Assembly (NCBI GenBank): GCA_041725895.1
Contig: JBGRQA010000005.1
Location: 141,134-205,133, forward strand
Origin: Marinifilaceae bacterium
GTDB taxonomy: Bacteria > Bacteroidota > Bacteroidia > Bacteroidales > Marinifilaceae
Length of the DNA: 64,000 bases
Reading direction: 5' to 3'
The position numbers and the translations under genes were made by a program. Below, piece by piece: positions 35,726 through 63,125 of the stretch; position 1 is the first letter of the stretch, and each line of letters opens with the position of its first letter. Below the pieces are notes generated by a model, which was not told where the DNA came from, searched no databases, and was given only the letters and a program-made list of their open reading frames with translations.

Positions 35726-37102
35726 TTATTTCCAGGTTTTTCGAATAGGATGAGCCTCGCTGTTAAAAATCACCTCCCTGAAATTCAATGTCTCCTTGGG
35801 AGCAAAAAGCAAATACAAATATTTCATTGTCTCAGCGAAAAAGAAACTCTGAAGAATATCATTCTTCTCTTTAGATACAATATCACTAAGCTCGCTGTAT
35901 CCTACTTCAGTTCTACAGTTTTGAATCAGACTTTCAAAATACTCCTGTCCTACTTTCAGATACTTTTCATCCCTGGTATACTGATACAGGTAATAGGCCG
36001 ATTCAAGGTTACCTGGCCGAAGGAAATAGTGCCCCCAAACAACTTCTTTGGATCTATAATCTATTTGCTCAGGCTCAACTCCATACAGCTTCCAAATACG
36101 GCGGCAGGATTCCTCAAGCTTTTGAGCCTGCCTCAAATCGCCACCCAGAGCTAAAACCGAGGGAAATGAGGCTTCCAACGCACCAAAATGGGAGTGTGTT
36201 CTGGCCCCGGTGTGCATGTCCACATGTCCATACCAAAGATCTCCATCATATTCCTGGGCCAAATGCTTGTTGATACCCTTAATGGACATCTCCCACATTT
36301 CTTTGCACTCCGCATCACCAAAAAGCAACCAGGCCTTCAAAAGGTATTCATAGTAAGAATCGATACACCCGGAAAGGTGAGCATCCTGATTCAACCATTC
36401 TCCGGTATGAATATTCAAGGTGGTTCCCACCAATCCAAGCTTTGATCGCCTCTGATAAACAGCTACAAGAGCTTTCTTTGCCTTGCTGTAATAAATCGGG
36501 TTCCCTGTCAATTTCGAAAGGCTTCCAAACTCAAGCAGTAGAGTACCAATTTCAGCAGGATTACTGGTTTCCCCTTTCACTTCGCCTGTTTTTAGATTCA
36601 CCCTGGCCCAGGGCATTCCTGTTTCCGTATTAAAAACGGGCAGCAAACGGTTGGCCAGATCAATAGCCAAATCCAAAAACCGGGGATCACCATCCAGCTG
36701 ATAAGCTGAAAGTAAGCTTCCCAAAAAGCGAAGGTTGGTTTCAAATGTCGAAACAAAAATATCACGATCGAAATCGAGCTTCGAAAGAAGCAATTCCTTT
36801 ACTTCTTTGGCCTCTTCGATTAACCCCATCAAAACCATCGTATCAAAAGCATCCATGGGGGTTATCAACATGGATTTATCGTACCAGTTTTTATATGATT
36901 TAGACAACGGCTTTAACTCATCCATTCCCCATGCATATTCCTTGTAACCGTTCCATGCATGTAGAAATTCTGATTTTACCTGATCTGCCATTTCCTCCTT
37001 GTCGAAGGAAGAATTCGTTTTTCGACCATTGGAATTGCATCCTGAACAAAGTCCAATGCCTAGAATCAAAACGAAAATGATACTTTTTTTATCTTTTATC
37101 AT
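35726..37102 (-). CDS. glycoside hydrolase family 47 alpha-1,2-mannosidase (lipoprotein)
   Basis: Lipobox LCSGC plus GH47-like blocks AWNGYKEYAWG.DEL.P, MDAFDTMVLMG and GTLLLEFGSLSKLTG. Confidence 0.8.
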   Translation of the reverse strand: MIKDKKSIIFVLILGIGLCSGCNSNGRKTNSSFDKEEMADQVKSEFLHAWNGYKEYAWGMDELKPLSKSYKNWYDKSMLITPMDAFDTMVLMGLIEEAKEVKELLLSKLDFDRDIFVSTFETNLRFLGSLLSAYQLDGDPRFLDLAIDLANRLLPVFNTETGMPWARVNLKTGEVKGETSNPAEIGTLLLEFGSLSKLTGNPIYYSKAKKALVAVYQRRSKLGLVGTTLNIHTGEWLNQDAHLSGCIDSYYEYLLKAWLLFGDAECKEMWEMSIKGINKHLAQEYDGDLWYGHVDMHTGARTHSHFGALEASFPSVLALGGDLRQAQKLEESCRRIWKLYGVEPEQIDYRSKEVVWGHYFLRPGNLESAYYLYQYTRDEKYLKVGQEYFESLIQNCRTEVGYSELSDIVSKEKNDILQSFFFAETMKYLYLLFAPKETLNFREVIFNSEAHPIRKTWK

Positions 37103-37176
37103 AACAACCGAGATTTAGCCTTACTCATACAGAAATGCCTATTCATGGGTTCCTGGAATACTTCAATATCGAAAAT

Positions 37177-39453
37177 TTATCTTTTTTTTGTCATTGATGG
37201 CGGAAAATCAGCAGAATTGGTAGCCCATTGAGTATTGGGCTGAGCTCCCATTTCAAATTTCAATTCTCCTCCATCAATTACTTCCTTGTGATAAATAAAG
37301 GATCGATTCAATTCTTTTCCGTTCAAAAACACTTTCTGAATATAAATGTTTTCATCAGAAACATTGGGGGCAACAACTCTAAAGTCCTTTCCTTTAGACA
37401 AACTTAGAACCGTTTCCTTAAATAAAGGAGTCCCAAAAACATAGATTCCTTCAACAGGGTTTACCGGGTAGAAACCAACCGAAGAGAATACATACCAGGC
37501 TGACATTTGCCCACAATCGTCGTTTCCACAAATTCCATTCGCTTCTGCAGTAAACATCTCTTTACGAATCCTGTGAACCAGTTCCTGGGTCTTCCACCCC
37601 TGTCCTACGTAATTGTACATATAGGCAACATGATGGCTGGGTTCATTGCCCTGGGCATACTGCCCGATCAATCCGGAAATATCCACGGAAGCATTTTCCC
37701 CTTTCACTTCCTGTTCCAGTGTAAATAAGCTATCCAATTTGGAAACGAAAGCGTCCTTTCCTCCGTGCAATTGAACAAGGCCCTCAATATCATGAGGCAC
37801 AAACCAGGAATATTGCCATGCATTTCCTTCGGTATATTCATCATCACGATGGTTGGAGTATAGAGGGTCAAATTTTTGCTTCCATTGCCCCTTTGCATTT
37901 TTGCCACGCATAAAACCTGTAGAAGCATCAAAAAGGTTTCGGAAACTGTTGGCCCGATTCATAAAATAATGGTAGTCCTCGCTCTTACCCAAAGCCTTTG
38001 CAACCTGGGCTATACACCAGTCATCGTAGGCATACTCCAATGTTTTGGAAACCGATTCATTCTCCATCTCCCATGGAATATAGTTGTATTTCTTCAAAGC
38101 CGATAAGCCCCAATGATCCTTCATGGCTGTTGCTTTCATAGCTTCATAGGCCAGCTCAGCATCGAAATCGCCAATCCCTTTAAAATAGGCTTCGGCAATT
38201 ACTGGAACCGAATGGTAACCAATCATACAAAAAGTTTCATTTCCACATAGATCCCAAATGGGCAGCTGTCCGAAAGCTTTGTAATAATCCAGCATGGATT
38301 TTACCATATCCCCCGCCTTTTCGGTCTGGGTTAAGGTAAACAATGGATGAGCAGCACGAAAAGTATCCCAAAGCGAAAAAACAGTGTACTGAACATGGCC
38401 ATTGGCCTTGTGAATCTTATCATCAGGACCTTTGTATTCTCCGTTAGCATCGGAATGGGTATAGGGTGCCAAATAGGAATGATAAGCTGCAGTGTAAAAA
38501 ATCGTTTTCTGTTTTTTATCATCCGATTGAACACGAATCTTAGCCAGTTCCTTTTCCCAAATAGCATCAGCCTTTGAAACCACCGAATCGAAATCCCAAT
38601 CAGTTAACTCGGTCTCTATGTTTTTCAACGCGCCTTGAATACTTGCAGACGAGATTCCAACTTTAACCATTACCTGATCGGTTGAATCACCAAAATCCAA
38701 ATAGGCAGTGAGTCCTTTTCCTTTAAAGTCCTGTTCTTTTGCAGCTATTTGAAACTCCTTCTCTCCAATAAAGGCCTGAAAGGCCTTGGAAAAACGTGCC
38801 ACAAAATAAACTCGTTGATCTTTCGCCCATCCCTTTGAAAGACGATACCCAACCAGAGTATGATCGTCCAAAACCTTAAAATGAGATTGTACCGGATCGT
38901 CCCAATTCACTTTATACTTTAAATCCACAATCAGGGCCTTTTTCCCATTGGCTGGAAAACTGTATCGGTGAAAACCACAACGTTGAGAAACGGTTAGTTC
39001 CGATTTAATCCCATTGTCCAGTGTTAAGGCATAGTACCCAGGTTTGGCAATTTCATTTTTATGATTGTACAAAGCCCAGGAAGACTGGTAAAAATCATCC
39101 ACTCCCTGATCCTTTTTGATTTTATTCTGAACAGGAAGAAACTTAACATCCTGTAAATCTCCAATTCCAGTACCACTCAGGTGGGTGTGAGAGAATCCAG
39201 CAAGAACACTATCAGCATAATTGTACCCCGAACACCAGTCCCATCCCTGGGTTGGATTGTCGGGACTCAATTGTACTCCTCCAAAAGGCAAAACAGCCCC
39301 GGGAAAAGTGTGTCCATGATCGGCCGTTCCAATCAATGGATCCACAAAATCGGTTAGTTTTTCCCCTTTTTGCTCAGTTGTTGAAGCACAAGAAACCAAA
39401 AGACCGGCAGCAACAACGGAACAAAAAATTCGATTAAGTTGTTTTTTAAGCAT
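37177..39453 (-). CDS. glycoside hydrolase family 92 alpha-mannosidase (lipoprotein)
   Basis: Lipobox LLVSC. GH92 N-terminal block VDPLIGTADHGHTFPGA, 758 aa. Confidence 0.9.
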   Translation of the reverse strand: MLKKQLNRIFCSVVAAGLLVSCASTTEQKGEKLTDFVDPLIGTADHGHTFPGAVLPFGGVQLSPDNPTQGWDWCSGYNYADSVLAGFSHTHLSGTGIGDLQDVKFLPVQNKIKKDQGVDDFYQSSWALYNHKNEIAKPGYYALTLDNGIKSELTVSQRCGFHRYSFPANGKKALIVDLKYKVNWDDPVQSHFKVLDDHTLVGYRLSKGWAKDQRVYFVARFSKAFQAFIGEKEFQIAAKEQDFKGKGLTAYLDFGDSTDQVMVKVGISSASIQGALKNIETELTDWDFDSVVSKADAIWEKELAKIRVQSDDKKQKTIFYTAAYHSYLAPYTHSDANGEYKGPDDKIHKANGHVQYTVFSLWDTFRAAHPLFTLTQTEKAGDMVKSMLDYYKAFGQLPIWDLCGNETFCMIGYHSVPVIAEAYFKGIGDFDAELAYEAMKATAMKDHWGLSALKKYNYIPWEMENESVSKTLEYAYDDWCIAQVAKALGKSEDYHYFMNRANSFRNLFDASTGFMRGKNAKGQWKQKFDPLYSNHRDDEYTEGNAWQYSWFVPHDIEGLVQLHGGKDAFVSKLDSLFTLEQEVKGENASVDISGLIGQYAQGNEPSHHVAYMYNYVGQGWKTQELVHRIRKEMFTAEANGICGNDDCGQMSAWYVFSSVGFYPVNPVEGIYVFGTPLFKETVLSLSKGKDFRVVAPNVSDENIYIQKVFLNGKELNRSFIYHKEVIDGGELKFEMGAQPNTQWATNSADFPPSMTKKR

Positions 39454-40438
39454 GATTAATAGTTTTGTTTAGGAATTTTTCATCATTCTCCAACTCTTTC
39501 CATACCAAAGCACTCGCTCCCAAAATGGCGGCATTGCTCTTCAAGCCGGAAGGCAATAACTTCACCTTGTTCTTGAAAATATTCAGCATGTTCTCCTCCA
39601 TGTGATGCTGAGTTGGTTTAAATATCAAATCCCCTGCCTTTGCGAGTCCACCAAAAAGAAAAATAGCCTCCGGATTGGTCACAGCAACCGCATTGGCCAG
39701 AGCCAGCCCCAACATCTGCCCGGTATATTCAAACGTTTCAATTGCTATTTTATCGCCACCGGTAGCTGCATCGTTCACCAATTTGGCATTGAGCTGATTA
39801 AAGGGAACGTCGCGAAGAACACTCTCCTCTCGGTATTTGGCCATCAGTTTCTGGGCAGTACGTTTCACCCCTGTGGCAGAAACATAGGTTTCCAAACAAC
39901 CCCTGCGACCACATCCGCAATGACGTCCTCCGGGCCGAACCAACATGTGCCCCACTTCTCCGGCAAAACCATCGTGTCCATACAGTAATTCCCCGTTCAC
40001 AACTATCCCACTGCCCAAACCGGTTCCCAGAGTAATCACCATAAAATTTTTCATTCCTTTGGCTCCCCCGTAGATCATTTCCCCAATAGCTGCAGCATTG
40101 GCATCATTGGTAAGAAAAGTTGGGACCTTAAAATGATCCTCAACCATTTGAGCCAAGGGAATCACGCCATCCCATCGCAGATTTCCTGCATGCTCAATGG
40201 TTCCGTTGTAAAAATTTCCGTTAGGTGCACCAATACCAATGCCTACAATCTCCAAATCGGGGCCGAAACAGGCAATGTGTTTATCTATTTCAGAAAAAAG
40301 CTCCTCCAGATACTTCTCTATCTCTCCGTGTTTTTGAGTGGGGATCGAATCCTCAACAAGGCATTTGCCCTCCCGATTGATAAATCCAAAAACCGTATTG
40401 GTTCCCCCTATATCTATGCCTATTGCAACTTGATTCAT
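39446..40438 (-). CDS. ROK family sugar kinase
   Basis: ATP motif GIDIGGTN and ROK zinc motif GHM...CGCGRRGCLE. Its 3' end overlaps the start of the downstream GH92 gene by 8 nt. Confidence 0.88.
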   Translation of the reverse strand: MNQVAIGIDIGGTNTVFGFINREGKCLVEDSIPTQKHGEIEKYLEELFSEIDKHIACFGPDLEIVGIGIGAPNGNFYNGTIEHAGNLRWDGVIPLAQMVEDHFKVPTFLTNDANAAAIGEMIYGGAKGMKNFMVITLGTGLGSGIVVNGELLYGHDGFAGEVGHMLVRPGGRHCGCGRRGCLETYVSATGVKRTAQKLMAKYREESVLRDVPFNQLNAKLVNDAATGGDKIAIETFEYTGQMLGLALANAVAVTNPEAIFLFGGLAKAGDLIFKPTQHHMEENMLNIFKNKVKLLPSGLKSNAAILGASALVWKELENDEKFLNKTINHA

Positions 40439-40468
40439 TTATATACTTTTTTGTTGTAAATGCTTAAA

Positions 40469-41863
40469 TTATTTGTGCAAGTGACCTCTTACAGCATAGT
40501 AAAAGATGTAGGCATAACATGCGAGTGTAATGATAAAGGCATGATGATATCCCATGATATCAGAAACATACCCCATCAGCAAAGGAATGATTGCTCCCCC
40601 AACAATAGCCATACACAAAATTCCGGATCCCTGAGAGGTGTGCTCCTCCAATCCATCGATAGCAAGAGTAAAAATAGTTGGGAACATAATGGAGTTAAAC
40701 AATCCTACCGAAACGATGGTCCACATAGCAAAATGACCGCTAAAAAAAACAGTTGTTGAAACCAGGCCAACAACAATTGCGGCAAAAATAGCCAGGGTAC
40801 GAGCAGGTTTGTTCTTTCCAATCATAAAAGCAAGAATATTCAACCCTGTAAATGCCAGGAAGATCAGTGCCATTTCAATATCCTTATTGATAGACCATCC
40901 CAAAATAGTTGCACCTACTGCAATGGCCAGAATCAAACCGTAGTATTTCAAGTCTTTTACAGTATCCGAAAGCATAACGGCTCCAAGAAAACGACCAATC
41001 ATAGCTCCCCCCCAATAAAGCGCAACATATTTGGCTCCAGCCTGATGGGAAAGACCAGCAATTTCTGGCTCAGCAAAAAAGAGAATCAAAAAGCTACCAA
41101 TAGCAACTTCTGCTCCAACATACAAAAAGATGGAAATGGCCCCTTTTACCAGGTGAGGAAAATTCCAGGCTGATTTCTTACTGGATGCACTAACGTCTTT
41201 TGTTTCGTTTTGACTCTCAATTTTGGGTAGTTTGGCAAAAGCAAATACCAATGCAATTAGAAAAAGAGTCACAGCAATGCCAATATAAGGCATTTGTACA
41301 GATTCCGCCTTTTCTATGGCAGGAGCACTTTCATCCACAAAAATAAAAACCGCCCCCAACAAAGGAGCAATTGTAGTCCCGAAAGAATTCAATGCCTGTG
41401 TCATATTGAGACGACTGGAGGCATTCTCAGGCTTTCCAAGGATAGCCACATAAGGATTCGCTGCCACCTGAAGAATCGTAATCCCGGAAGCCAGAACAAA
41501 GAATGCAAAAAGGAAAAATGCATAATTAATAATAATGGAAGCGGGATAAAAAAGTAAAGCTCCAATTCCGGTGGTCACCAATCCCAGTACAATACCCCTT
41601 TGGTACCCAACTTTACCTACAATAAAACCAGCAGGAAGCGACATCAGGAAGTACGCTCCAAAAAAAGTAAACTGGATCAGCATGGTTTCCAGATTGGTCA
41701 TCACGAATAATCCCTTTAAATGCGGAATCATAATATCGTTCAAACAAGTGATAAATCCCCACATAAAAAACAGGGAAGTTAACATTGCTAAAGCCGGTCC
41801 GTAATTTTTCCCGGCGCCTGCAACCGCCTTTACATCAGCGGCTGCCATAGATTGACTTGCCAT
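40469..41863 (-). CDS. sugar MFS transporter (FucP / glucose-galactose-mannose type)
   Basis: 12-TM MFS layout. The N-terminal block LFFMWGFITCLNDIMIPHLK is typical of the FucP/GluP family. Confidence 0.85.
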   Translation of the reverse strand: MASQSMAAADVKAVAGAGKNYGPALAMLTSLFFMWGFITCLNDIMIPHLKGLFVMTNLETMLIQFTFFGAYFLMSLPAGFIVGKVGYQRGIVLGLVTTGIGALLFYPASIIINYAFFLFAFFVLASGITILQVAANPYVAILGKPENASSRLNMTQALNSFGTTIAPLLGAVFIFVDESAPAIEKAESVQMPYIGIAVTLFLIALVFAFAKLPKIESQNETKDVSASSKKSAWNFPHLVKGAISIFLYVGAEVAIGSFLILFFAEPEIAGLSHQAGAKYVALYWGGAMIGRFLGAVMLSDTVKDLKYYGLILAIAVGATILGWSINKDIEMALIFLAFTGLNILAFMIGKNKPARTLAIFAAIVVGLVSTTVFFSGHFAMWTIVSVGLFNSIMFPTIFTLAIDGLEEHTSQGSGILCMAIVGGAIIPLLMGYVSDIMGYHHAFIITLACYAYIFYYAVRGHLHK

Positions 41864-41921
41864 TCTCTAAACAATTAATATTTCACAATTATTTTTATCT
41901 CAACTTCTCTTAATTCATGAA

Positions 41922-43352
41922 TCAACTCAACAGTTCGGGATGGTATTGATGTATTTTCAATACGAACTCACCGAAAAGGGTATTGGCCCAGGCAAACCAT
42001 TTACGGGTATACTTTTTGGGATTATCCATATGAAAAGTCTCATGCATAAATCCGGTTCCGCCATGGGTCTTAACAAGAGTATCCAGACACCATTTCATCT
42101 CCTTTTTGTCAGTAGATGTCAACCCCTGCATAATCAGACTCATAGGCCAAATCATTTCCAATCCCACATGAGGTCCACCTATCCCTTCAGCCACCTTCCC
42201 CTTAAAGAAATAGGGATTGTTTTCACTCAACACAAATCTTCGTGTGTTCTGATACACATCATTATCTACATCCATACACCCCAGGTATGGCATTGACAGC
42301 AAGCTGGGAATATTGGCATCGTCCATAAAGAGCTTGTTTCCGAACCCATCCACCTCGTAAGGCATTATCTTTCCATAATCAAGATGGTCCGTTACAGCAT
42401 ATTCCTTTAAAGCCTCCTCGACTTCATCTGCCAAACGTCTGCATTTCATAGCAAAATCGTGCCTACCATGAATCTCTTGATGCATTTGAGCCATCTGACG
42501 CAGGGAAACAACAGCAAAATGATTAGCGGGAACCAAGAAAGGATAGATACTTGCATCATCGGATGGGCGGAAAATAGAACAAATCAGCCCAACAGGTTTC
42601 ACGGGATTACCATATCCTCCACCAGCAACTGTATCGGTTTGCCAACCAGTTACTCGCATAAATTTATAAGGGCCTTTATCACTTTTTCTCTGCTGCTCTA
42701 TAAAAGTCTGAAGAATTAATTCACTGGTCCTAATCCAATTTCTATTGAAACAAGCAGTTTCTCCGGTGGCTTTCCAAAATCCATAGGAAAGACGTATGGT
42801 ATAGCAAAGAGAATCAATCTCCCATTTGCGTTCGTGAAGCTCCGGTTTCATATCGGTTAAATCCTTCTCCCAGTGACTTCCGGTTGGTCCAAAGTTAAAT
42901 GCATTGGCATAGGGATCAATCAGAACACATTTGGTTTGACGATTCACTACTCCCTCCAACAACAATTTCAATTCCTTATCCTCTTTGGCAAAAGGAAGAT
43001 AAGGCCAAACCTGTGCAGTGGAGTCACGCAACCACATGGCATGAATATCACCCGTAATAACAAAAGTATCAGGCTTTCCATTAACAATTTGATGCTCCAC
43101 TGTTGTGTCCAATGTATTGGGCAGGCAATTTTCAAACATCCAGGCCAATTCAGAATTCGAAATAGAAGCTTTGACTTCTCTAATTTTAGCTTCTACAGCT
43201 TTGGATACAAATTTTCTTTCCTTTCGCGATGGGCGACACGATAAATAAACAGCATCGGAATCCTTTGCGTAGGTAGGTAAAACATTCAGCCCAAGACCGG
43301 CGGTGATCAATCCGGTAGTTTTCAGAAAATTTCTTCTAGTAACCATATACAC
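41922..43352 (-). CDS. glycoside hydrolase family 125 exo-alpha-1,6-mannosidase (Tat-signal)
   Basis: Twin-arginine signal TRRNFLKTTGL. GH125/DUF1237 block GDIHAMWLRDS. Confidence 0.85.
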   Translation of the reverse strand: MYMVTRRNFLKTTGLITAGLGLNVLPTYAKDSDAVYLSCRPSRKERKFVSKAVEAKIREVKASISNSELAWMFENCLPNTLDTTVEHQIVNGKPDTFVITGDIHAMWLRDSTAQVWPYLPFAKEDKELKLLLEGVVNRQTKCVLIDPYANAFNFGPTGSHWEKDLTDMKPELHERKWEIDSLCYTIRLSYGFWKATGETACFNRNWIRTSELILQTFIEQQRKSDKGPYKFMRVTGWQTDTVAGGGYGNPVKPVGLICSIFRPSDDASIYPFLVPANHFAVVSLRQMAQMHQEIHGRHDFAMKCRRLADEVEEALKEYAVTDHLDYGKIMPYEVDGFGNKLFMDDANIPSLLSMPYLGCMDVDNDVYQNTRRFVLSENNPYFFKGKVAEGIGGPHVGLEMIWPMSLIMQGLTSTDKKEMKWCLDTLVKTHGGTGFMHETFHMDNPKKYTRKWFAWANTLFGEFVLKIHQYHPELLS

Positions 43353-43678: not shown

Positions 43679-44980
43679 TTAAACATGCTCCGAAAAGAGA
43701 GCCCGTATCGGATTAAAAATACGTTGCAAGAGACGAATATCCTCCGTAATAATATCGGAAGCTCCCTCCATCTGTTGAGAGAAATCCAACTTCTTCCCAT
43801 AATTGGTTTCCAAACCATTAGTTAACCGGACTTCACAGCTATACTTTTGATCATCCGGAACCAAAGAGATGGATTGAATTTGTCCCTCCAGCATTCCATA
43901 TTCCATAAAGGGATAGTTATCCAGCTTAATATTAACCTTTTGGCCAACCTTTACCTTTCCGGCCCCCTGCAAGCCCAATTCAATTCGGGCAAAAATTTTG
44001 GTCGAATCTTCCGGTATAACCGTAAGAACACGTTCTCCCGCTTTCACCTGTTGGTTCAAACTCCAAAACTTGTTAAAACTTACGAATCCCTTAATCGGTG
44101 ACCGCAAAAGATACCGCTGTTCCCAAATATCAATTTGAGCCTTTAGATTATCGTAGGCTTGTACAAGAGAATTTTGCTTGGTTCTTAGAATATCTACATG
44201 AGACAATTCCAGGTCCATTATTTCTTGCTGAAGAGCTGAAATACTAATTTGTGTATTGGCAAGAGAGGTGCGGGCCCCATGAAAGGAGTAACTTTGATCC
44301 AAATAGGCTTTTTGCGATATTTGGTAATCAGCCAGTGCCAAAACGCCTTTACGATACAATACAGAATCCCTATGGAATTGCTGTTCCGCAATTTCGAGTT
44401 CCTTTTCGAGTATGTCTCTCTGTTGAAACAAGCGATTGTAATAAAGGTTGTATTTTGCAACCTGATCCTTTTTAGATTCAATTTTACGGGCATGATATTC
44501 CAAATCAATAAAGTCTTGATAATCCGAAAATTGCTTCAAAAATGAGGCATAGTAGCTTTGAATTTCTCCCAACTGATAGTTTTGAGTAAAATCGGTATCA
44601 ATCAACCCGTTAAAATCGGTAAAATAGCTTTGAAGCTGATCCAATTGCTTCCGTAATGAATTTACATCTTGTAATTTGCCGGAGTTTTCGATCAATGCAA
44701 GAATTTGACCAGGTTCCACCATCTGGTTCTCCTGCACAAGCAATTGATCGATAGTGCCGTTTACCTTAGCAACCATTTTAGCGGGAGGATTTTCAGTCGT
44801 CAAAATCACTTTGGCAGGAATAATATCAGGATACCTGAAAAAATAGCTTCCAACAATAATTATAAAAATAACAGTAAATATGAGGCTAATCCCCCTTCGG
44901 ATGATCCAGTGAGGAATATGGCCTAAAATTTCCTGTACCTCCTCACTACGAAGTTCTATATTATTCGGGTTTTGTGGCAT
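43679..44980 (-). CDS. HlyD-family secretion adaptor protein (bacteriocin/peptide export accessory)
   Basis: Single N-terminal TM, a long coiled-coil middle and a C-terminal beta-barrel/lipoyl-like region. It lies directly downstream of the C39-ABC exporter. Confidence 0.85.
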   Translation of the reverse strand: MPQNPNNIELRSEEVQEILGHIPHWIIRRGISLIFTVIFIIIVGSYFFRYPDIIPAKVILTTENPPAKMVAKVNGTIDQLLVQENQMVEPGQILALIENSGKLQDVNSLRKQLDQLQSYFTDFNGLIDTDFTQNYQLGEIQSYYASFLKQFSDYQDFIDLEYHARKIESKKDQVAKYNLYYNRLFQQRDILEKELEIAEQQFHRDSVLYRKGVLALADYQISQKAYLDQSYSFHGARTSLANTQISISALQQEIMDLELSHVDILRTKQNSLVQAYDNLKAQIDIWEQRYLLRSPIKGFVSFNKFWSLNQQVKAGERVLTVIPEDSTKIFARIELGLQGAGKVKVGQKVNIKLDNYPFMEYGMLEGQIQSISLVPDDQKYSCEVRLTNGLETNYGKKLDFSQQMEGASDIITEDIRLLQRIFNPIRALFSEHV

Positions 44981-45084
44981 CTAATACGGGTTTTATGTAT
45001 TTTTCGGGTAATATTGGCTTTGTTATACTTGATTTAGAATAGATTATTTGTTCTTTCTAAATTTTTGTTTAGAAAATCTACGTC

Positions 45085-47292
45085 CTAACCACCTAATTCC
45101 AATTGATTTTTTACAAGTCGGTAGTAGGCTCCCTCCATTAATGCCAACTCATCATGACTTCCTCTTTCCACAATCTGTCCTTTCTCAATGACTATGATTT
45201 GATCGGCATTTTTAACGGTACTTAATCGGTGAGCAACAACAACCACGGTTCTACCCTTGTTGAATTTTTCCAAATTCTCCATAATGGCTCTTTCATTGTT
45301 GGCATCCAAAGCGTTGGTTGCTTCATCAAAAAACAGATATTCGGGGTTTTTATATACTGCCCGGGCGATTAAAATCCGTTGCTTTTGTCCCTGACTTAAA
45401 CCATGACCATCAGATCCAATTTTAGTATTGAATCGCAAAGGTAATTTTTCGATAAAATCATGAATACAGGCAACCTGTACAGCGTGAAGCAATCGCTTCT
45501 TATCCACAATTTCATCACCAACAGCAATATTCCGGGCTATGGTATCTGAAAAAATGAACCCCTCCTGCATTACCACACCACAATTCTGTCGCCACATTGG
45601 GGAACTGTAGTTTTGAAGATCTACTCCCCCCACAGTAACCTGTCCCTTTGTAGGTGGATAAAAACCAAGCATGAGCTTAATCAGAGTGGTTTTTCCACTT
45701 CCGGAGGTTCCCACAATTGCTGTCGTCTTCCCTTTGGGAATATCCAATTGAATATTATCCAGAACCATTTCGGAATGAGGGCCCTCATACTGAAAACTCA
45801 CCTTGTCAATGATAATACTTCTATCCTCTGGCAACTCACGCAATTTCTCCTCCTCAAAATTCTCTTCATCCTCTTTTTCATGAATTTCGCCCAATCGTTC
45901 CATAGATATTTTAGCGTCTTGCCAGGAGTGAATAAACTGAATCATACTATCGATAGGAGAATTCAACTGCCCTATAATGTACTGGACTGCCAACATCATA
46001 CCTAAAGTCATTTGTCCGTCCAATACCGATTTGGCCGCCAAAAAAGTGATCAGAATGTTCTTGGTTTCGTTAAAAAACACCGAACCCGAAGTCTGGTACT
46101 GATTCAAAGACAGCCCCTGAATGCGAACACGAAACAACTGTGCCTGAATCTGTTCCCACTCCCAACGTTTCTGCTTCTCACAATTGTTCAGTTTAATTTC
46201 CTGCATTCCGGTAATCAACTGAACAATGTTGCTCTGGTTACTGGAGAGCTGGGCGAAGCGTTTGCCATCCAATTCCCTTCTTTTTCTTAGGAACAGGTTG
46301 ATCCAGGTAATATACAATGCACTACCCAAAACAAAAATCAGGAAGATTTGCAGGTTGTAAATGGCAAGAACCACTCCAAAAATAATCAGGTTGACAAAGG
46401 AAAAAAGTATATTAAGGGTAGAAGAAGTCAAAAAGCTTTCAATTCGGGTATGATCCTGGATTCGTTGCATCAAATCACCAATCATTTTGATATCGAAAAA
46501 GCCAATGGGAAGTTTCATCAACTTGATCAAAAAGTCGGAGATTAAGGAAATATTGATCCGAGTTGAAATGTGCAGGAGAATCCAGCTACGTATAAAATCA
46601 ACCGACATTCTACTGATAAACAGAAACAATTGGGCAACAAGAATCAAGTGAATGAAATTCAGATTCCGCGTATTGATCCCCACATCAACAATCGACTGCG
46701 TCAAAAAGGGAAAAATCAATTGCAACATACTCCCGAAAAGCATGCCCAAAAAGAGCTGAAACAGAAACTTTTTATAGGGTCTCAAATACTGAAGCAAAAA
46801 TCCGACCTTCTTCCTCTTGGAGCCTTTCTCATCTTCATTGGAAAAGAATTCAGGAGTTGTTTCCAAAAGCAAGCAGAGCCCCTTTTCCTCTCCCTGACTT
46901 TTGGTTGTAGCCCAGGATTTGGAGAACTCCTTTTCACTGTACTTCAACAAACCAGCCCCAGGGTCGGCTACATGAATCTCATAGCCCTTTTTCTTCTTCT
47001 CCACTTTGTGTACCACCACAAAATGGTTCTGCCCCCAATGAGCTACACAGGGTAATGGAGCCTCTTCAGCCAATTGCTTAAAACTTATACGTACTCCCAT
47101 GCTTTTCATGCCAATACTTTCAGCAGCATCGGCAATTCCAAGCATCGAAACTCCTTCGCGGGTAATATGGCTTCGATCACGGAGAGTTTGCAAGGTGTAA
47201 TTCTTACCATAATATTTAGCAATCATACGCAGGCAAGTGGGCCCGCAATCCATTGCATCTAGCTGAGTAAAATGGGGAAATCGTTTCTTCAA
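45085..47292 (-). CDS. peptidase C39 domain-containing ABC transporter (double-glycine leader cleavage and export)
   Basis: N-terminal C39 motif QLDAMDCGPTCLRMIAKYYG with a downstream NHFVVVH. Six TM helices. Walker A GTSGSGKTT, signature LSQGQKQR, Walker B YLFFDEAT. Confidence 0.93.
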   Translation of the reverse strand: MKKRFPHFTQLDAMDCGPTCLRMIAKYYGKNYTLQTLRDRSHITREGVSMLGIADAAESIGMKSMGVRISFKQLAEEAPLPCVAHWGQNHFVVVHKVEKKKKGYEIHVADPGAGLLKYSEKEFSKSWATTKSQGEEKGLCLLLETTPEFFSNEDEKGSKRKKVGFLLQYLRPYKKFLFQLFLGMLFGSMLQLIFPFLTQSIVDVGINTRNLNFIHLILVAQLFLFISRMSVDFIRSWILLHISTRINISLISDFLIKLMKLPIGFFDIKMIGDLMQRIQDHTRIESFLTSSTLNILFSFVNLIIFGVVLAIYNLQIFLIFVLGSALYITWINLFLRKRRELDGKRFAQLSSNQSNIVQLITGMQEIKLNNCEKQKRWEWEQIQAQLFRVRIQGLSLNQYQTSGSVFFNETKNILITFLAAKSVLDGQMTLGMMLAVQYIIGQLNSPIDSMIQFIHSWQDAKISMERLGEIHEKEDEENFEEEKLRELPEDRSIIIDKVSFQYEGPHSEMVLDNIQLDIPKGKTTAIVGTSGSGKTTLIKLMLGFYPPTKGQVTVGGVDLQNYSSPMWRQNCGVVMQEGFIFSDTIARNIAVGDEIVDKKRLLHAVQVACIHDFIEKLPLRFNTKIGSDGHGLSQGQKQRILIARAVYKNPEYLFFDEATNALDANNERAIMENLEKFNKGRTVVVVAHRLSTVKNADQIIVIEKGQIVERGSHDELALMEGAYYRLVKNQLELGG

Positions 47293-47647
47293 AATTATTT
47301 CGTAGTTAACAATTTGTAATAATTAAGCTTAAAAATAAGGAAAATAAACTCTGAATTACTATTATTTTAGTGTTTTGCTGGATTATTACTTTTTTTTATT
47401 AAAATTAATTATCCATAACTTTAATAAATGTGTGTTTTCGTTCTGAAATTCAACAAGATCCTTCAAAAAAACACATAACAATAATCTAATTAATAAAAAT
47501 ATTTATTTCTTCAAAAACAGTCAATAGCTTTAATTATTATATTAACCATAATAAAAAACTATACTTTTACGAAAAAAAATGAACCAGAACAATCAATCTG
47601 GTCCAAAGTCCTTGCAAATTTATAGTTGCATATTATTTTTAAGTTAA

Positions 47648-48982
47648 TTATTTAAGTGTGGATTCATAGTATGCTTCAAGATTTTTATTCAGCATTCCAG
47701 GGGCTTTCTCCATACACTGACATAAATTATACTCTCCAGCATGATAGAGATTTCGCATATTGTACCAAGTACATTTTCCATTACATATTGGCAAAAAGAA
47801 GCATTTCCTACATGTCGGATCATTATACCAACTACCACCTTCCATGTATTTATAAAACAAAGATGGGTTTGTCATTTTTTCTTGGTTTATATATCCCACA
47901 ATCCGACTTTTATCTGAGACATCATTCCAACATCTGTATATTTCGCCGACTGGACCGATAATATAGGAATTCAATTTAGTAGCGCAACATGTTTTACCAA
48001 GCACAAGTGAAGGATAAGTCGGAATATCAATCATTCCCTTTTGTCCCAATTCGTAGTGAAGTTCAGCAACCTCCTCACGAGGAATGGTCGGTGATTTCAC
48101 ATTTGTGTTGGTTGAATTTTCAAGTCTTATAATCCCAGGATAAATAATCAGATTCTTACTTGATGTGAAAGCTTTTATTTCAGAATATACTTGATAGTAA
48201 TCACCAATATTGGTTTTATCAATATTTACACGAACATGAAGTTCGGTTTCGGGTAACCTCTTGAGGATATTTTTAATATTATGAATAATCCTATTATAGG
48301 ATGAACCCTTTACATCACTTTTATCCGCCCGTAAAAGATTATGCCTTTTCTCGTTTCCATCTAAAGTTATCTGGATATTATCTAAAGGATATCGCTTAAA
48401 GAAATCAATGACTTCATCATTAAATAAATATCCATTGGTTATTATAGTGTGCTTTTTTAAGGGGATATCAACTTCTGAAGATAGTTTATTAAGAATATTT
48501 TGGATCTGTTCAAAAGCAAGAAGAGGTTCTCCTCCGTACCACGTGATATCCATCTCCTCCGCACTTTTATGTCTCTTAATAAAATTAAAAAGATCTCCAA
48601 TTACTTGATCCGTAATAATACCTGATCGTTTACCTCTTTCGAAACAATAGGGACAATCAAAGTTACAGTCTATTGTAGGTACAATTACAAGTCCCAACTT
48701 ATCCTTATTGTGTTTTCTACTCTGAGTATAGAATTGATGCTTCAAAACAAATATATCATCTGCTCCGTCGGAAACTATTATCCCATTCTCTTCTAACAAT
48801 TTAAAGGCATCTTCTGGCAATTCTCCTAATAGGGTAGGATCTGACTTACATTTTTCTATATAATTATAAAGCTCCTTTGAGAGCTCTAAAAAGGAATTAA
48901 AACAAGAGGAATAAACCAAATATTTTCCTTTTGAGGATACAAACAAATAAACATATCTTGAAATTATCTTCTTCGTATTCAT
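47648..48982 (-). CDS. radical SAM/SPASM-domain peptide maturase
   Basis: CNFDCPYC (CxxxCxxC) cluster after a roughly 100-aa N-terminal, possibly RRE-like, region. The Cys-rich C-terminus CCATK...GEIYRCWND...CRKCFFLPICNGKC fits a SPASM twitch/auxiliary cluster domain. Confidence 0.9.
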   Translation of the reverse strand: MNTKKIISRYVYLFVSSKGKYLVYSSCFNSFLELSKELYNYIEKCKSDPTLLGELPEDAFKLLEENGIIVSDGADDIFVLKHQFYTQSRKHNKDKLGLVIVPTIDCNFDCPYCFERGKRSGIITDQVIGDLFNFIKRHKSAEEMDITWYGGEPLLAFEQIQNILNKLSSEVDIPLKKHTIITNGYLFNDEVIDFFKRYPLDNIQITLDGNEKRHNLLRADKSDVKGSSYNRIIHNIKNILKRLPETELHVRVNIDKTNIGDYYQVYSEIKAFTSSKNLIIYPGIIRLENSTNTNVKSPTIPREEVAELHYELGQKGMIDIPTYPSLVLGKTCCATKLNSYIIGPVGEIYRCWNDVSDKSRIVGYINQEKMTNPSLFYKYMEGGSWYNDPTCRKCFFLPICNGKCTWYNMRNLYHAGEYNLCQCMEKAPGMLNKNLEAYYESTLK

Positions 48983-49018
48983 TATATTTAAAATTATACT
49001 TACTATTGGCCGTTAGCT

Positions 49019-49050
49019 AAAAACTGCTCCACTTAATATCAGTAGAGCAG
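49019..49050 (-). terminator. intrinsic terminator or attenuator between the precursor genes and the maturase gene
   Basis: On the minus strand, CTGCTCTAC-tgatattaa-GTGGAGCAG (one mismatch) is followed by TTTTT. Confidence 0.5.
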
Positions 49051-49084
49051 TCTGAATTTTTAGATTTACAAATTAGTATCCGTC

Positions 49085-49279
49085 TTATTTTGTAGTTGGA
49101 TCCGTTGGTTTGGTTGGTTTGGTTTCATTTTTATTCCCAATCCAACAGTCACAAGAACAATCTTGTTCATCAGCAACTGAGGTAACACCACCAAAAACAT
49201 TAACTAATTCATCTTGATTAAGTACGTCAGAGTTTTTAATAACTCTTACCGAAAAATCATTTTTCCCTTTTTTAGTCAT
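49085..49279 (-). CDS. RiPP precursor peptide B (GG leader; CSCDCWIGN core; Pro/Thr tail)
   Basis: 64 aa: MTKKGKNDFSVRVIKNSDVLNQDELVNVFGG|VTSVADEQDCSCDCWIGNKNETKPTKPTDPTTK. Paralogue of peptide A. I place the start at the internal ATG at 49279. Confidence 0.85.
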   Translation of the reverse strand: MTKKGKNDFSVRVIKNSDVLNQDELVNVFGGVTSVADEQDCSCDCWIGNKNETKPTKPTDPTTK

Positions 49280-49322
49280 AATATTATAATTAAAACTATT
49301 TGTACACTTGATTATCTGCAAC

Positions 49323-49514
49323 TTACTTTGTAGTAGGATCCGTTGGTTTAGTTGGTGTGCTATTACTATTACCAATCCAACAATCACATGTACATTCTGG
49401 TTCAGCTGCATCTGAATTTAAACCACCAAAAACATTAACTAATTCGTCTTGGTTAAGCACGTCTGAGTTATTGATAACTTTTACCGAAAACTCTTTTTGA
49501 TCTTTTTTAGTCAT
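49323..49514 (-). CDS. RiPP precursor peptide A (GG leader; CTCDCWIGN core; Pro/Thr tail)
   Basis: 63 aa: MTKKDQKEFSVKVINNSDVLNQDELVNVFGG|LNSDAAEPECTCDCWIGNSNSTPTKPTDPTTK. Confidence 0.88.
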   Translation of the reverse strand: MTKKDQKEFSVKVINNSDVLNQDELVNVFGGLNSDAAEPECTCDCWIGNSNSTPTKPTDPTTK

Positions 49515-49663
49515 AACATTAAATTTTAAAGATTAATTAATTGATTTTCAATGCGCATTTTTACTGAGCTCATAGTAAACTTAAGTTACTTCACTGTCAA
49601 TATTGGCAGTCAACCAAGAAGACGATATCTAAATACTATGTAACCAATTAATCTCTCCTTTAC

Positions 49664-49867
49664 TTAATGTTCTGTAAGAATATAAGTTCGGAGACTACGA
49701 GAATAAAAAATATCATTTCCATAATCTCTTAAATAATCAATCATACGATACAAAGTACGCTCAGAGACTCCTATTTTAAATGCCAATTCCTTAGGAGTTC
49801 CGGTAGCTTTAAGAGAAGCCAATTTTTTTATTCTTTCCAATTTCTCGAAATCTTCAAAAATATTCAT
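49664..49867 (-). CDS. small helix-turn-helix protein (67 aa), first gene of the precursor operon
   Basis: GTPKELAFKIGVSERTLYRMIDYL is an HTH_11/DeoR-N-like motif. Promoter motif copy A lies 38 nt upstream. Confidence 0.7.
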   Translation of the reverse strand: MNIFEDFEKLERIKKLASLKATGTPKELAFKIGVSERTLYRMIDYLRDYGNDIFYSRSLRTYILTEH

Positions 49868-49936: not shown

Positions 49937-50474
49937 AAATCATTTAATCTTTTTAATGATATATACATCATTAACATATTACAATGTTGCAATAATTGCT
50001 CCCACAAAATAATGGCAATTTTTTCACCCATTTATGTTAATGAAAAAAGTTCAGAACATAAGAAGCAACACTCGATATTACAATCAAGAAGTCTTAGGTG
50101 GATAAGTTTAGAAATCTCCTTTATTCGTATAACGCAACCTACTTTTCAACCGTATGGGTAAGGGAATGGTTTGTACCTACTTTCTATTAACTCCGTATCA
50201 AGTCCGTATAAATACGGAGTTAATACTACCTTGAGTAAAACAAAATATACAGCAGGTACAGACAAGATGCAGAGAAATACTAACGCACGTACAAAAACGA
50301 TGCGCCTCGCCTGAATGAGGCAATAGCACAACAGGAAAGGGAAAAAGATCAGACTAAAAAAAACTGTCAATCCGGGATTGGATTCAGCCCTCCCGCTCTA
50401 TCGAAACGGGATTAAAACCATACTTTATATTTTGAATAAGTATAGTTTTATTAGCGGAATTAGATGTTGACATG

Positions 50475-50573: not shown

Positions 50574-51788
50574 TTAGGATTCTGATTTCAGAGTCGCCAC
50601 AACAACAATTGGATTATCTTCACTCTTCACATGGGAAACCAATTCCTTTAACTCGTCCTGCTTCTGTTGGGAAACAGCATTTCCCCATTGAAAATCCTCC
50701 TTCTGAAAGCTTTCCTTGAAAGCGGAAGCATTCCGCCAATTGCACAAATATTTGTCCTGATATATCCGCTTGGGCCAAAAGGTTTGGCCTCCATCCAAAT
50801 CATTCAAAAGGCCATAGGATCCGCTTGCTGTTTGCACAGAATAGAATTCCTTATTCACTTTATCATACAATCCGGTTATTATCTTTCCCTTGTAATCAAA
50901 ACTCATACAGGAGACAAACAACCATTTTTCACTCTCGTACACAATAGGATTCAAATATTTCCCTGCATAGTTTTGGTAACGCTTCATATCCTCTACGTAT
51001 TCTATTCGTTTCTCGACGGGGATAAATTTTTCGCCTAGCTCCAATTTATAAATCGGTTTCATTTCAGTTGGGCTGGCACAGGTAAAAATGGTATCACCAT
51101 ATAGTTTCCGGAAATGAAGCTTATTTTGATAATGATAGAAATACCGATCCGGAATCATCCAGAAAACACCGTTCCCATGAACAGTAAAACGTTCATGATT
51201 TGTAAATCCTTTGATACTATCCAATTCAACACCAAAAGAGATAGCCTTTATTTCTTTCTCTCCCTGCGGATTTCGCACATGAAGCAGAAAGGAAGTGGAA
51301 TCGATCCAATCAAAAGCCATTCCCGGCTGATCAGGAACAGGAAATTCCTCTATATAATTTCCTAAAAAATCGTACACAACCAGTTTTTGACGTCCTCCTG
51401 CACTAACGTATACCCGTTGAAGTTCCTGATTTACGGAAAGATGGTAAACTCTGGCATATTCACCAGGCCCCTTACCTATTGCTCCCACTTTACGAATAAA
51501 TTTTCCTGCCCGGTTGAATTGCATGACTGCATCGGAAGAATGGGTAAAAATAAATTGATCGGTAACAATCACATCTCGTATTCTCCCTAAATAGGAATCG
51601 TCATTCGTTTCCAGTGGAATGTATTGAATATCTTCAGCAAGAGCCGATAAATTTACACTTCGGCAATTGTCAAGATTCGCATTCAGTTCAACGTGGATGA
51701 TACCATCAACTTCCTTTTTGGAAGAGGTAGATCCACAGCTCCAAAGAAGGGTGGAAAGAAGAAAAAGAAAAACAGTTCGTAGAAGCAT
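50574..51788 (-). CDS. lipoprotein, probable 6-bladed beta-propeller family (BF3164/DUF5128-like)
   Basis: Lipobox LLWSCGS, and a beta-rich 404-aa body with repeated aromatic/Gly blades. The family assignment is from memory and weak. Confidence 0.45.
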   Translation of the reverse strand: MLLRTVFLFLLSTLLWSCGSTSSKKEVDGIIHVELNANLDNCRSVNLSALAEDIQYIPLETNDDSYLGRIRDVIVTDQFIFTHSSDAVMQFNRAGKFIRKVGAIGKGPGEYARVYHLSVNQELQRVYVSAGGRQKLVVYDFLGNYIEEFPVPDQPGMAFDWIDSTSFLLHVRNPQGEKEIKAISFGVELDSIKGFTNHERFTVHGNGVFWMIPDRYFYHYQNKLHFRKLYGDTIFTCASPTEMKPIYKLELGEKFIPVEKRIEYVEDMKRYQNYAGKYLNPIVYESEKWLFVSCMSFDYKGKIITGLYDKVNKEFYSVQTASGSYGLLNDLDGGQTFWPKRIYQDKYLCNWRNASAFKESFQKEDFQWGNAVSQQKQDELKELVSHVKSEDNPIVVVATLKSES

Positions 51789-51905: not shown

Positions 51906-52268
51906 CTAATGGTGAACTCTTAGATCCAAACTCAATTTTTCCAACAATTCCTGCTTTCGCCGCCTTGCTACCGGTATGGAAGCCCCATCCTGAAGTATCA
52001 ATTGATCGGAACCAAAATTGTACTCCCGAACCTGTGAAAGGTTCACAAGAAAAGAGCGATGAATTCGGAAAAAGCCCAGAGAGTTAATCCGTTCCTCCAC
52101 CTTGGCGATGGATTGAGAAATGGTTAAACTCTCTCCATTTTTGAGGAAAATAACACTATAATTCTCCGCTGCCCGACAATATAAAATTTCATAAAGCCAA
52201 AGTAAATGCAGCCTTCGCTCCCCAGAAAAAGTGACCTTTTTGTGATAGTCAATAGTTAATTCGAGCAT
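51906..52268 (-). CDS. stand-alone LytTR DNA-binding domain protein (no receiver domain)
   Basis: 120 aa. ...ILYCRAAENYSVIFLKNGESLTISQSIAKVEERI...FFRIHRSFLVNLSQV is the LytTR signature. Confidence 0.85.
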   Translation of the reverse strand: MLELTIDYHKKVTFSGERRLHLLWLYEILYCRAAENYSVIFLKNGESLTISQSIAKVEERINSLGFFRIHRSFLVNLSQVREYNFGSDQLILQDGASIPVARRRKQELLEKLSLDLRVHH

Positions 52269-62875: not shown

Positions 62876-62983
62876 ATGAAAAATTTCGAAACCCTAAACC
62901 AAGAAGAGCTGCAGGAAGTTAAAGGCGGATACAATCCTTACGAAATGAGAGAAATCGATGTCACCGATGACGCTATTGTTTAA
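62876..62983 (+). CDS. 35-aa double-glycine-leader peptide 1 (acidic 17-aa core)
   Basis: MKNFETLNQEELQEVKGG|YNPYEMREIDVTDDAIV. It is absent from the ORF track because it is under 60 aa. Support comes from the paralogue comparison. Confidence 0.75.
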   Translation: MKNFETLNQEELQEVKGGYNPYEMREIDVTDDAIV

Positions 62984-63017: not shown

Positions 63018-63125
63018 ATGAAAAATTTTGAAACCCTAAACCAAGAAGAGCTACTGGAAGTAAAAGGTGGATACAATCCTTATGAAATGAGAGAAATCGA
63101 TGTTACTGATGATGCTATCGTATAA
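63018..63125 (+). CDS. 35-aa double-glycine-leader peptide 2 (identical core)
   Basis: MKNFETLNQEELLEVKGG|YNPYEMREIDVTDDAIV. Against copy 1 it has 10 synonymous and 1 non-synonymous difference (leader Q13L). Confidence 0.75.
   Translation: MKNFETLNQEELLEVKGGYNPYEMREIDVTDDAIV

Follow-up and report, generated by a model that had tools for sequence, protein, structure and literature searches.

A radical SAM/SPASM gene cluster of a Marinifilaceae bacterium that probably encodes ring-stapled, cysteine-rich peptides with double-glycine leaders

Among the described systems closest to the one reported here, StsA has a core of the pattern CxCxC-x4-GxGxG in which hairpin sactionines join C6 to G11, C4 to G13 and C2 to G15, and the same arrangement is found in BlaA (CxC-x4-GxG) (PMC10288494). 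NxxcB produces a Cys-to-Asn beta-thioether and PapB a Cys-to-Asp linkage (PMC9389541). The SCIFF (ranthipeptide) precursors of the CteB system contain six Cys in forty-five residues, have no double-glycine (GG) leader and carry a Cys-to-Thr gamma link. For the order Bacteroidales, a purely in silico survey of clusters for peptides that are made on ribosomes and modified afterwards (RiPPs), published in 2023, lists the class I (modified) bacteriocins as uncharacterised (PMC10352776). The current work concerns a 64,000-nucleotide stretch of a marine Marinifilaceae bacterium (assembly GCA_041725895.1, contig JBGRQA010000005.1, positions 141,134 to 205,133), called the window below, in which positions 43679-49867 contain genes for two small precursors, a radical S-adenosylmethionine (SAM)/SPASM enzyme, a peptidase-containing ABC transporter (PCAT) and an HlyD-family protein, all on the minus strand. 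A first-pass annotation had proposed a radical SAM/SPASM RiPP cluster with a C39 exporter here, and every open reading frame (ORF) was found where it had been placed. The products are probably small cysteine-rich secreted peptides stapled into rings by the radical SAM enzyme. A RiPP biosynthetic cluster with Cys thioether rings, GG cleavage and PCAT export is, in our judgement, a reasonably probable reading of the whole.

Precursor A (49323-49514, minus strand) has 63 aa and precursor B (49085-49279, minus strand), its tandem paralogue, has 64 aa; the start of B is an internal ATG of a longer mechanical ORF. In both, a 31-aa leader terminates in VLNQDELVNVFGG and is followed by the core, LNSDAAEPECTCDCWIGNSNSTPTKPTDPTTK in A and VTSVADEQDCSCDCWIGNKNETKPTKPTDPTTK in B. 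By inspection, the leader end LNQDELVNVFGG carries L-12, E-8, L-7 and V-4 with GG at -2/-1 and so fits the double-glycine leader pattern; the Bacteriocin_IIc hidden Markov model (HMM) matches weakly (15.9 and 17.4 bits, cut-off 27.1). Both cores hold C-(T/S)-C-D-C-W-I-G-N and both terminate in KPTDPTTK, so that leaders, cores and ends are as the first-pass annotation had described them.

The tandem duplication, flanks included, aligns with 86% mean column identity. The two genes differ by 27 codons, 12 of them synonymous and 15 nonsynonymous. Leader residues 16-31 show 5 synonymous and 0 nonsynonymous changes and the C-terminal 11 residues of the tail (53-63) show 4 and 0, respectively, and in the residues that join GG to the first Cys (linker 32-40) a single synonymous change is accompanied by 7 nonsynonymous ones. 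Such a partition is expected where peptides are translated and their leader, Cys block and tail are constrained, and the codon changes indicate purifying selection on these three parts of both paralogues. Proteins identical to the enzyme and to both precursors are present in an NCBI metagenome-assembled genome labelled Marinifilaceae bacterium, in which the precursors (P0124 for A, P0122 for B) are annotated as 'hypothetical protein'.

The enzyme gene (47648-48982, minus strand) encodes a peptide maturase of 444 aa which, judged by its domains and motifs, is a member of the radical SAM/SPASM superfamily. Pfam Radical_SAM (PF04055) matches with 56.6 bits against a cut-off of 29.5, and the SPASM model TIGR04085 with 45.5 against 27. 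The CxxxCxxC motif (C106/C110/C113) is invariant in 33 homologues, and the SPASM region has eight conserved Cys (C332, C351, C391, C394, C400, C404, C421 and C423), which include a Cx2Cx5Cx3C block. The nearest NCBIfam models are maturases of Cys-rich peptides, namely TIGR04463, Clo7bot, CefB, PapB, CcpM and SCIFF. The enzyme is below every equivalog cut-off, with 200.2 bits for TIGR04463 (rSAM_vs_C_rich; cut-off 525), 193.6 for Clo7bot (TIGR04334; 600), 175.3 for CefB (NF038107; 600), 104 for PapB (NF047865; 340) and 93 for SCIFF (TIGR03974; 425). TIGR04463, Clo7bot and CefB are in-silico families with presumed Cys-rich-peptide substrates, and as the top matches they align near full length (E 1e-51 to 1e-59); however, the window enzyme stays far below their cut-offs, and none of the three has a known chemistry. 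The relatives P0003, P0100 and P0056 are likewise below these three cut-offs. P0056, a protein of a Bacteroidia bacterium (locus L086) with 50% identity, bears the name Clo7bot at NCBI; this identity was rejected, at 193 bits against 600, and the name is probably an over-annotation.

When a profile of the enzyme family was compared with the sequences in the PDB, CteB came first (E 7.6e-27), followed by TigE, ChlB and the sactisynthase SkfB, and neither SuiB nor PqqE was matched. An AlphaFold (AF2) model built from 33 homologues (predicted local distance difference test 90.6, predicted template modelling score 0.87) also has CteB (5WGG) as its best structural match, along the entire protein (E 5e-18, 481 columns, identity about 17%), ahead of TigE, anSME, SuiB, ChlB and SkfB. 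In this model the first 90 residues fold into strands and helices like the RiPP recognition element (RRE) domain of CteB; residues 5-65, with four strands and three helices, lie within the full-length alignment to the RRE-bearing CteB. No PqqD/RRE HMM matches this part, and an RRE-like domain is predicted from the fold. The enzyme resembles CteB in a radical SAM barrel, a SPASM domain and a Cys-rich substrate, with a predicted RRE-like part at its N-terminus, and its precursors are unlike SCIFF in the features given above.

The StsA/StsB and BlaA/BlaB systems share with the window precursors alternating CxCxC cysteines, a short loop and alternating acceptors, and would share the nested rings proposed below (PMC10288494). 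Their acceptors, however, are Gly residues (GxGxG) after a four-residue loop, whereas the putative acceptors in the window are Asn-x-Asn after a three-residue loop; moreover, StsB is MftC-like and works with a separate RRE protein, and these actinobacterial systems lack both a GG leader and a PCAT. NxxcB and PapB (PMC9389541; NF047865) offer a parallel for radical Cys-to-Asn/Asp side-chain thioethers, the linkage proposed here, and the Cx3D spacing of PapB equals Cys45-x3-Asn49, but PapB is without the long N-terminal domain and in NxxC it is a residue upstream of the Cys that acts as acceptor.

The GG-Bacteroidales family (TIGR04148/04149/04150) is also a Bacteroidales radical SAM RiPP system with a GG-leader precursor, and a weak similarity to TIGR04149 is found in the leader region only of the window precursors (16.2 and 13.3 bits, cut-off 25). 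TIGR04148 (cut-off 300) gives 54.6 bits for the close relative P0003 and less than 40 bits for the window enzyme, because it is outside the best 25 families of the latter. No pseudo-rSAM gene (TIGR04150) was found among the scanned neighbours on both sides, and the radical-SAM-like tblastn match in the window was the query only. Since all three defining models fail, membership was ruled out; the first-pass annotation had already noted the absence of a pseudo-rSAM gene. By its sequence matches, the locus belongs to the radical SAM/SPASM superfamily with PCAT/GG export, and to none of TIGR04148/49/50, TIGR04463, Clo7bot, CefB, PapB and SCIFF. No NCBIfam or Pfam model matches the precursors above cut-off, the core strings were not found in literature text, and a search that left aside the subscription-only literature and the RaS-RiPP atlas found in-silico surveys only and no paper describing this core; the core is, as had been suspected, in no catalogued RiPP family nor, as far as found, in a characterised one. 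FlmE/OhkG were considered as a parallel and rejected as unrelated arginase-containing pathways. By analogy, the cluster resembles a CteB-like thioether maturase joined to a GG-leader peptide that is exported by a PCAT.

The exporter gene (45085-47292, minus strand; 735 aa, TTG start) encodes a C39 peptidase followed by transmembrane and nucleotide-binding domains, with Pfam scores of 116 bits for Peptidase_C39 (PF03412), 84 for ABC_membrane and 113 for ABC_tran. Its N-terminal domain matches LahT150 (6MPZ; E 3e-19) and has the Gln/Cys (TQLDAMDCG), His (NHFVV) and Asp (ADP) motifs. In the alignment to LahT150 and PCAT1, Cys16 and the His motif are in place and the C39 domain is non-degenerate; it is predicted to be a catalytically competent leader protease. 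From the leader pattern together with these intact motifs, cleavage after Gly31 is expected. The HlyD-family membrane-fusion (periplasmic adaptor) protein (43679-44980, minus strand; 433 aa) matches HlyD_3 with 54 bits against 22, and TIGR01843 with 105 bits, under the cut-off of 208.

Relatives were found by a profile scan of metagenome contigs, which gave 80 loci with related enzymes; a single-sequence enzyme scan of genome contigs returned one irrelevant locus with 27% identity. In an exhaustive HMM search of 1.84 billion representative proteins, the precursor family comprised 88 clusters at E<=1e-3 and 36 at E<=1e-10, and precursor A was the best match of the profile with 86 bits. A profile search over a word index gave 54 clusters, all without a name. 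The core motif recurs beside homologous enzymes in independent metagenome contigs, and one to three GG-leader peptides lie upstream of every enzyme with at least 44% identity (L002-L013). The type-1 cores of these loci follow the pattern C-x-C-[DE]-C-Φ-x-[GS]-N-x-N, Φ being bulky and mostly aromatic or aliphatic; a type-2 core, C-x-x-C-N-C-[WY]-x-G-N-x-N, often stands beside them. The CxC-x3-NxN register is present in 18 of the 20 precursors that adjoin enzymes at least 44% identical. Invariant in the family alignments are GG (in all 34 aligned members), the three Cys and Asn49, and Asn51 is kept in more than 90%. Between Cys2 and Cys3, 38 of 59 members have D, 18 have N and 2 have E.

These alignments indicate that the precursors are a real, unnamed and fairly widespread Bacteroidales family with members in the human gut, which the first-pass annotation had missed. 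It occurs in the cultured gut species Phocaeicola coprocola and Bacteroides fluxus, the precursor proteins being recorded on about 290 contigs each, and P0171 of B. fluxus has the identical 11-residue core CTCDCWIGNSN. The more distant enzymes (30-42% identity) adjoin other Cys/Asn-rich cores; in L019, where the enzyme is 37% identical, the precursor holds three units of a CTCGSANSN-type CxC-x3-NxN. The Pro/Thr tail, which the first-pass annotation had called conserved, is a feature of the two window paralogues only. Tails in relatives are hydrophilic and often rich in Pro, Thr, Lys or Ser, with no conservation of sequence, and a tail similar to KPTDPTTK was seen once, in P0190.

Some members of the family and their surroundings can be described in their own right. 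P0229, a distant member of 172 aa from the representative search, is a multi-core precursor with three consecutive leader and core units in one polypeptide (…LTDEQLAEIKGG PG…C-x2-C…SNHNETTV…), a layout that suggests iterative GG cleavage. For the enzyme P0003 there are records on 81 contigs, and the collection lists it in 149 blocks. The P. coprocola-type cluster (L082/L083 1-4326) adjoins TraM, DUF4138, TraO, primase and TraQ genes and therefore rides on a conjugative transposon.

Where the flanking DNA of a relative is long enough to show it, the order of genes is almost always precursor or precursors, enzyme, an outer-membrane barrel of about 760 aa and PCAT, with no HlyD gene. The barrel gene is found at 9352-11628 of L082/L083, in L084-L086 and in most of L003-L068; this member of the canonical layout, absent in the window, had escaped the first-pass annotation. 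By Pfam, the barrel protein has CarboxypepD_reg, TonB_dep_Rec_b-barrel and OMP_b-brl_3 domains; a Plug domain is not on record, and no NCBIfam model matches the protein. The barrel may serve in export, immunity or uptake, and might be a new kind of export or uptake partner for RiPPs. In the window its place is taken by an AT-rich non-coding gap of 355 nt (47293-47647, no strand) with no ORF of at least 40 aa, and an HlyD gene follows the PCAT gene. A tblastn search with the barrel protein found no homologue or relic in this gap or elsewhere in the window. Moreover, gut relatives commonly pair a type-1 with a type-2 precursor, whereas the window has type-1 twice.

The pathway that would follow begins with translation of the two paralogous precursors, whose leader would be bound by the putative RRE-like N-terminal domain of the enzyme. 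By 5'-deoxyadenosyl radical chemistry and with auxiliary Fe-S clusters, the enzyme would then link C41, C43 and C45 (numbering of precursor A) to nearby carbons as thioethers. The likeliest acceptors are Asn49 for Cys45 (+4) and Asn51 for Cys43 (+8), in a nested hairpin, and Cys41 may be joined to Asp44 or to residue 53. The product would be a compact knot of two or three rings in about 11-13 residues, with a hydrophilic Pro/Thr/Lys tail. The PCAT would cut after Gly31 and export the peptide, HlyD would form the bridge to an outer-membrane channel encoded elsewhere, and the hairpin 3' of the precursor genes, described below, would keep precursor mRNA in excess over enzyme mRNA.

Thioethers are proposed because the closest enzymes by sequence and structure form thioethers. 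Two or three Cys-Asx rings are proposed because three Cys and three Asx are the sole family-conserved residues beyond the cleavage site, and nested rings because the CxC-x3-NxN register corresponds to the hairpin geometry of StsA and BlaA. The conserved identity of the Asx residues leans towards a side-chain (beta) rather than an alpha link, although the conserved Gly acceptors in StsA show that alpha links can also fix the identity of an acceptor. Product chemistry separates the two classes concerned, the Cys sulfur being bound to an alpha carbon of another residue in sactipeptides and to a beta or gamma carbon in ranthipeptides, and a place of the window peptides in either class would have indirect support. 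Gene content, domain identities, conservation in the family and the fold come from the analysis itself; from the parallels above we infer the thioether chemistry, the topology of the rings and an extracellular role of the product as a bacteriocin or signal.

Several observations weigh against this proposal. Homology does not allow a function to be transferred, because the enzyme reaches none of the curated family cut-offs. The CteB-like fold is also found in SPASM enzymes whose products are C-C and C-O links, cyclopropanes (TigE, the second structural match) and formylglycine (anSME, the third). The residues in catalytic proximity in CteB, F112, F152, T186, S210, H363 and Q364, align by hand counting to F114, Y149, I181, T206, W352 and N353, of which three are similar and three different, a match in part only. 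Position Asn51+2, where a third acceptor could be placed, is not conserved across the family. The cluster also has no immunity gene and no gene for an outer-membrane channel.

The best-surviving alternative is that the enzyme carries out non-crosslinking or other Cys chemistry, such as epimerisation, anSME-like Cys oxidation, thio-oxazole formation or a new reaction, and that the conserved Cys and Asn are metal ligands or disulfide partners. The presence of anSME and the epimerase EpeE among the structural neighbours would agree with it, as would the partial match to the CteB catalytic residues, and a TonB-receptor-like barrel beside the enzyme of most relatives would fit the uptake of a metal-binding peptide. 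The closest relatives by sequence and structure are, however, thioether formers, the CxC-x3-NxN register parallels that of proven hairpin sactipeptides (PMC10288494), and a barrel with no Plug on record fits a channel better than a receptor. We therefore hold this alternative to be unlikely, while giving it some weight.

A C-C or C-O crosslink centred on Trp46, of streptide, darobactin or cyclophane type, with the Cys in another role such as disulfides, had been among the candidates of the first-pass annotation. Both window precursors, and 34 of the 59 members, have Trp after Cys3, and SuiB, the cyclophane-type maturases AmcB, YhhB and GrrM, and also DynA are among the weak matches of the enzyme. 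Yet the position is variable, with F, I, L, A, Y, T, R and others, even in precursors beside enzymes 52-56% identical, whereas the Cys and Asn residues vary little or not at all; furthermore, SuiB has no sequence match and is a poor structural one (template modelling score 0.46-0.50, root-mean-square deviation 14). A Trp-centred crosslink is thus very unlikely.

Weakest is the idea of a decaying remnant that lost its barrel gene and no longer makes a product, which the non-coding gap at the barrel site, with no homologue in the window, and a foreign origin suggested by low G+C (0.31 over 48-50 kb, where the precursor and enzyme genes lie, against about 0.38-0.41 in the flanks and 0.37-0.44 elsewhere in the window) would allow, but which is most improbable given six intact, full-length ORFs in the ORF list of the window, catalytic motifs that are present, purifying selection on both precursors, and HlyD as an alternative export route, an HlyD fragment being also found beside the precursors in the relative L010.

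With thioether rings retained as the preferred reading, a stronger joint claim may be considered: a tricyclic knot closed by three Cys-to-Asx thioethers (Asp44, Asn49, Asn51), of a topology and with acceptors unlike those of described sacti- and ranthipeptides, in a family spread on conjugative elements in human-gut Bacteroidales and mostly paired with a plug-less barrel. All parts taken together, this claim is doubtful, though worth keeping in view. If the tricyclic Cys-Asx reading were true, no radical-SAM thioether peptide family would, to our knowledge, have been characterised earlier from Bacteroidota. With roughly one chance in four, the chemistry or the outer-membrane component that goes with it may prove to be truly new.

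A stem-loop followed by a U-run separates the precursor genes from the enzyme gene (49021-49053, minus strand) and is a putative attenuator or transcript-stabilising hairpin. Its 13-bp stem folds with a free energy of -21.8 kcal/mol (z -4.3), which none of 200 shuffled sequences equalled, so that the hairpin seen in the first-pass annotation is upheld. Of 8 relatives whose sequences were folded, 7 have a strong hairpin there as well (z -3.4 to -6.9), unrelated in sequence, and the hairpin can therefore be regarded as a conserved feature of the family. Hairpins that set transcript ratios occur in many bacteriocin and lantibiotic operons, and by this analogy the present one most plausibly sets a high ratio of precursor to enzyme transcripts. 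A second, terminator-like hairpin with T8 was found by the terminator scan directly 3' of the enzyme gene (47580-47605, minus strand; -17.9 kcal/mol, z -2.7). Because this hairpin and the 355-nt gap split the enzyme from the exporter, 'gene cluster' is a safer term than 'operon', and the single operon of the first-pass annotation is doubtful in view of two terminator-like hairpins. No known RNA element was found by Rfam in 43.0-52.5 kb. A scan for sigma-70 promoters gave 31 sites, not above the expectation from shuffled sequence (25.4 +/- 5.1), and no convincing TAnnTTTG (Bacteroidetes-type) promoter was found upstream of precursor A. Taken as a whole, the earlier observation of the cluster is confirmed and its RiPP interpretation was largely right; the Trp crosslink and the conserved tail are the parts that did not hold.

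A helix-turn-helix (HTH) protein of 67 aa, a possible regulator, is encoded at 49664-49867 (minus strand; Pfam HTH_11, 26.5 bits against 25). Its membership in the cluster is uncertain; a homologue with 38% identity, about 3 kb from the enzyme, occurs only in the B. fluxus-type loci L084/L085 and is not kept in other relatives. Directly downstream of the cluster, 35726-43352 (minus strand) holds an alpha-mannoside utilisation block with GH47, GH92 and GH125 mannosidases, a ROK kinase and an MFS transporter, which is unrelated to the peptide genes, and the other flank contains a DUF5128 propeller, a LytTR protein and a Crp regulator. The peptide cluster looks like an inserted island among unrelated genes, and its low G+C agrees with horizontal acquisition.

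Three minus-strand genes (50574-51788, 51906-52268 and 50146-50370), close upstream of the HTH gene, are those for a lipoprotein with a DUF5128/DUF4934 six-bladed beta-propeller, a LytTR DNA-binding protein that stands alone without receiver domain and a hydrophobic 74-aa ORF with a TTG start; the domain scan found no family match for the last. LytTR regulators are frequent controllers of peptide and bacteriocin loci. Farther along the window, 62876-62983 and 63018-63125 (plus strand) encode two further tandem double-glycine-leader peptides of 35 aa each, MKNFETLNQEEL[Q/L]EVKGG followed by YNPYEMREIDVTDDAIV, with no Cys in their cores; one of them passes the bacteriocin_sig model TIGR01847 (19.1 bits against 15.7). 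The pair adjoins a divergent gene for a 954-aa protein with TPR and CHAT domains (59853-62717, minus strand; CHAT 200 bits), and together they may form a separate peptide signalling or processing system.

The type of system found here is familiar, and the peptide family is uncatalogued; it opens no long-standing question and is a good lead for genome mining. The compact six-gene version in the window, with two near-identical substrates, is convenient for heterologous reconstitution. A solved chemistry would annotate a clade of proteins now listed as pairs of 'radical SAM protein' and 'hypothetical protein', and would test whether the conserved Asn-x-Asn is a mark of a side-chain (beta) thioether acceptor. 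It could possibly also bring to light a peptide that serves antagonism or signalling in gut and marine Bacteroidales.

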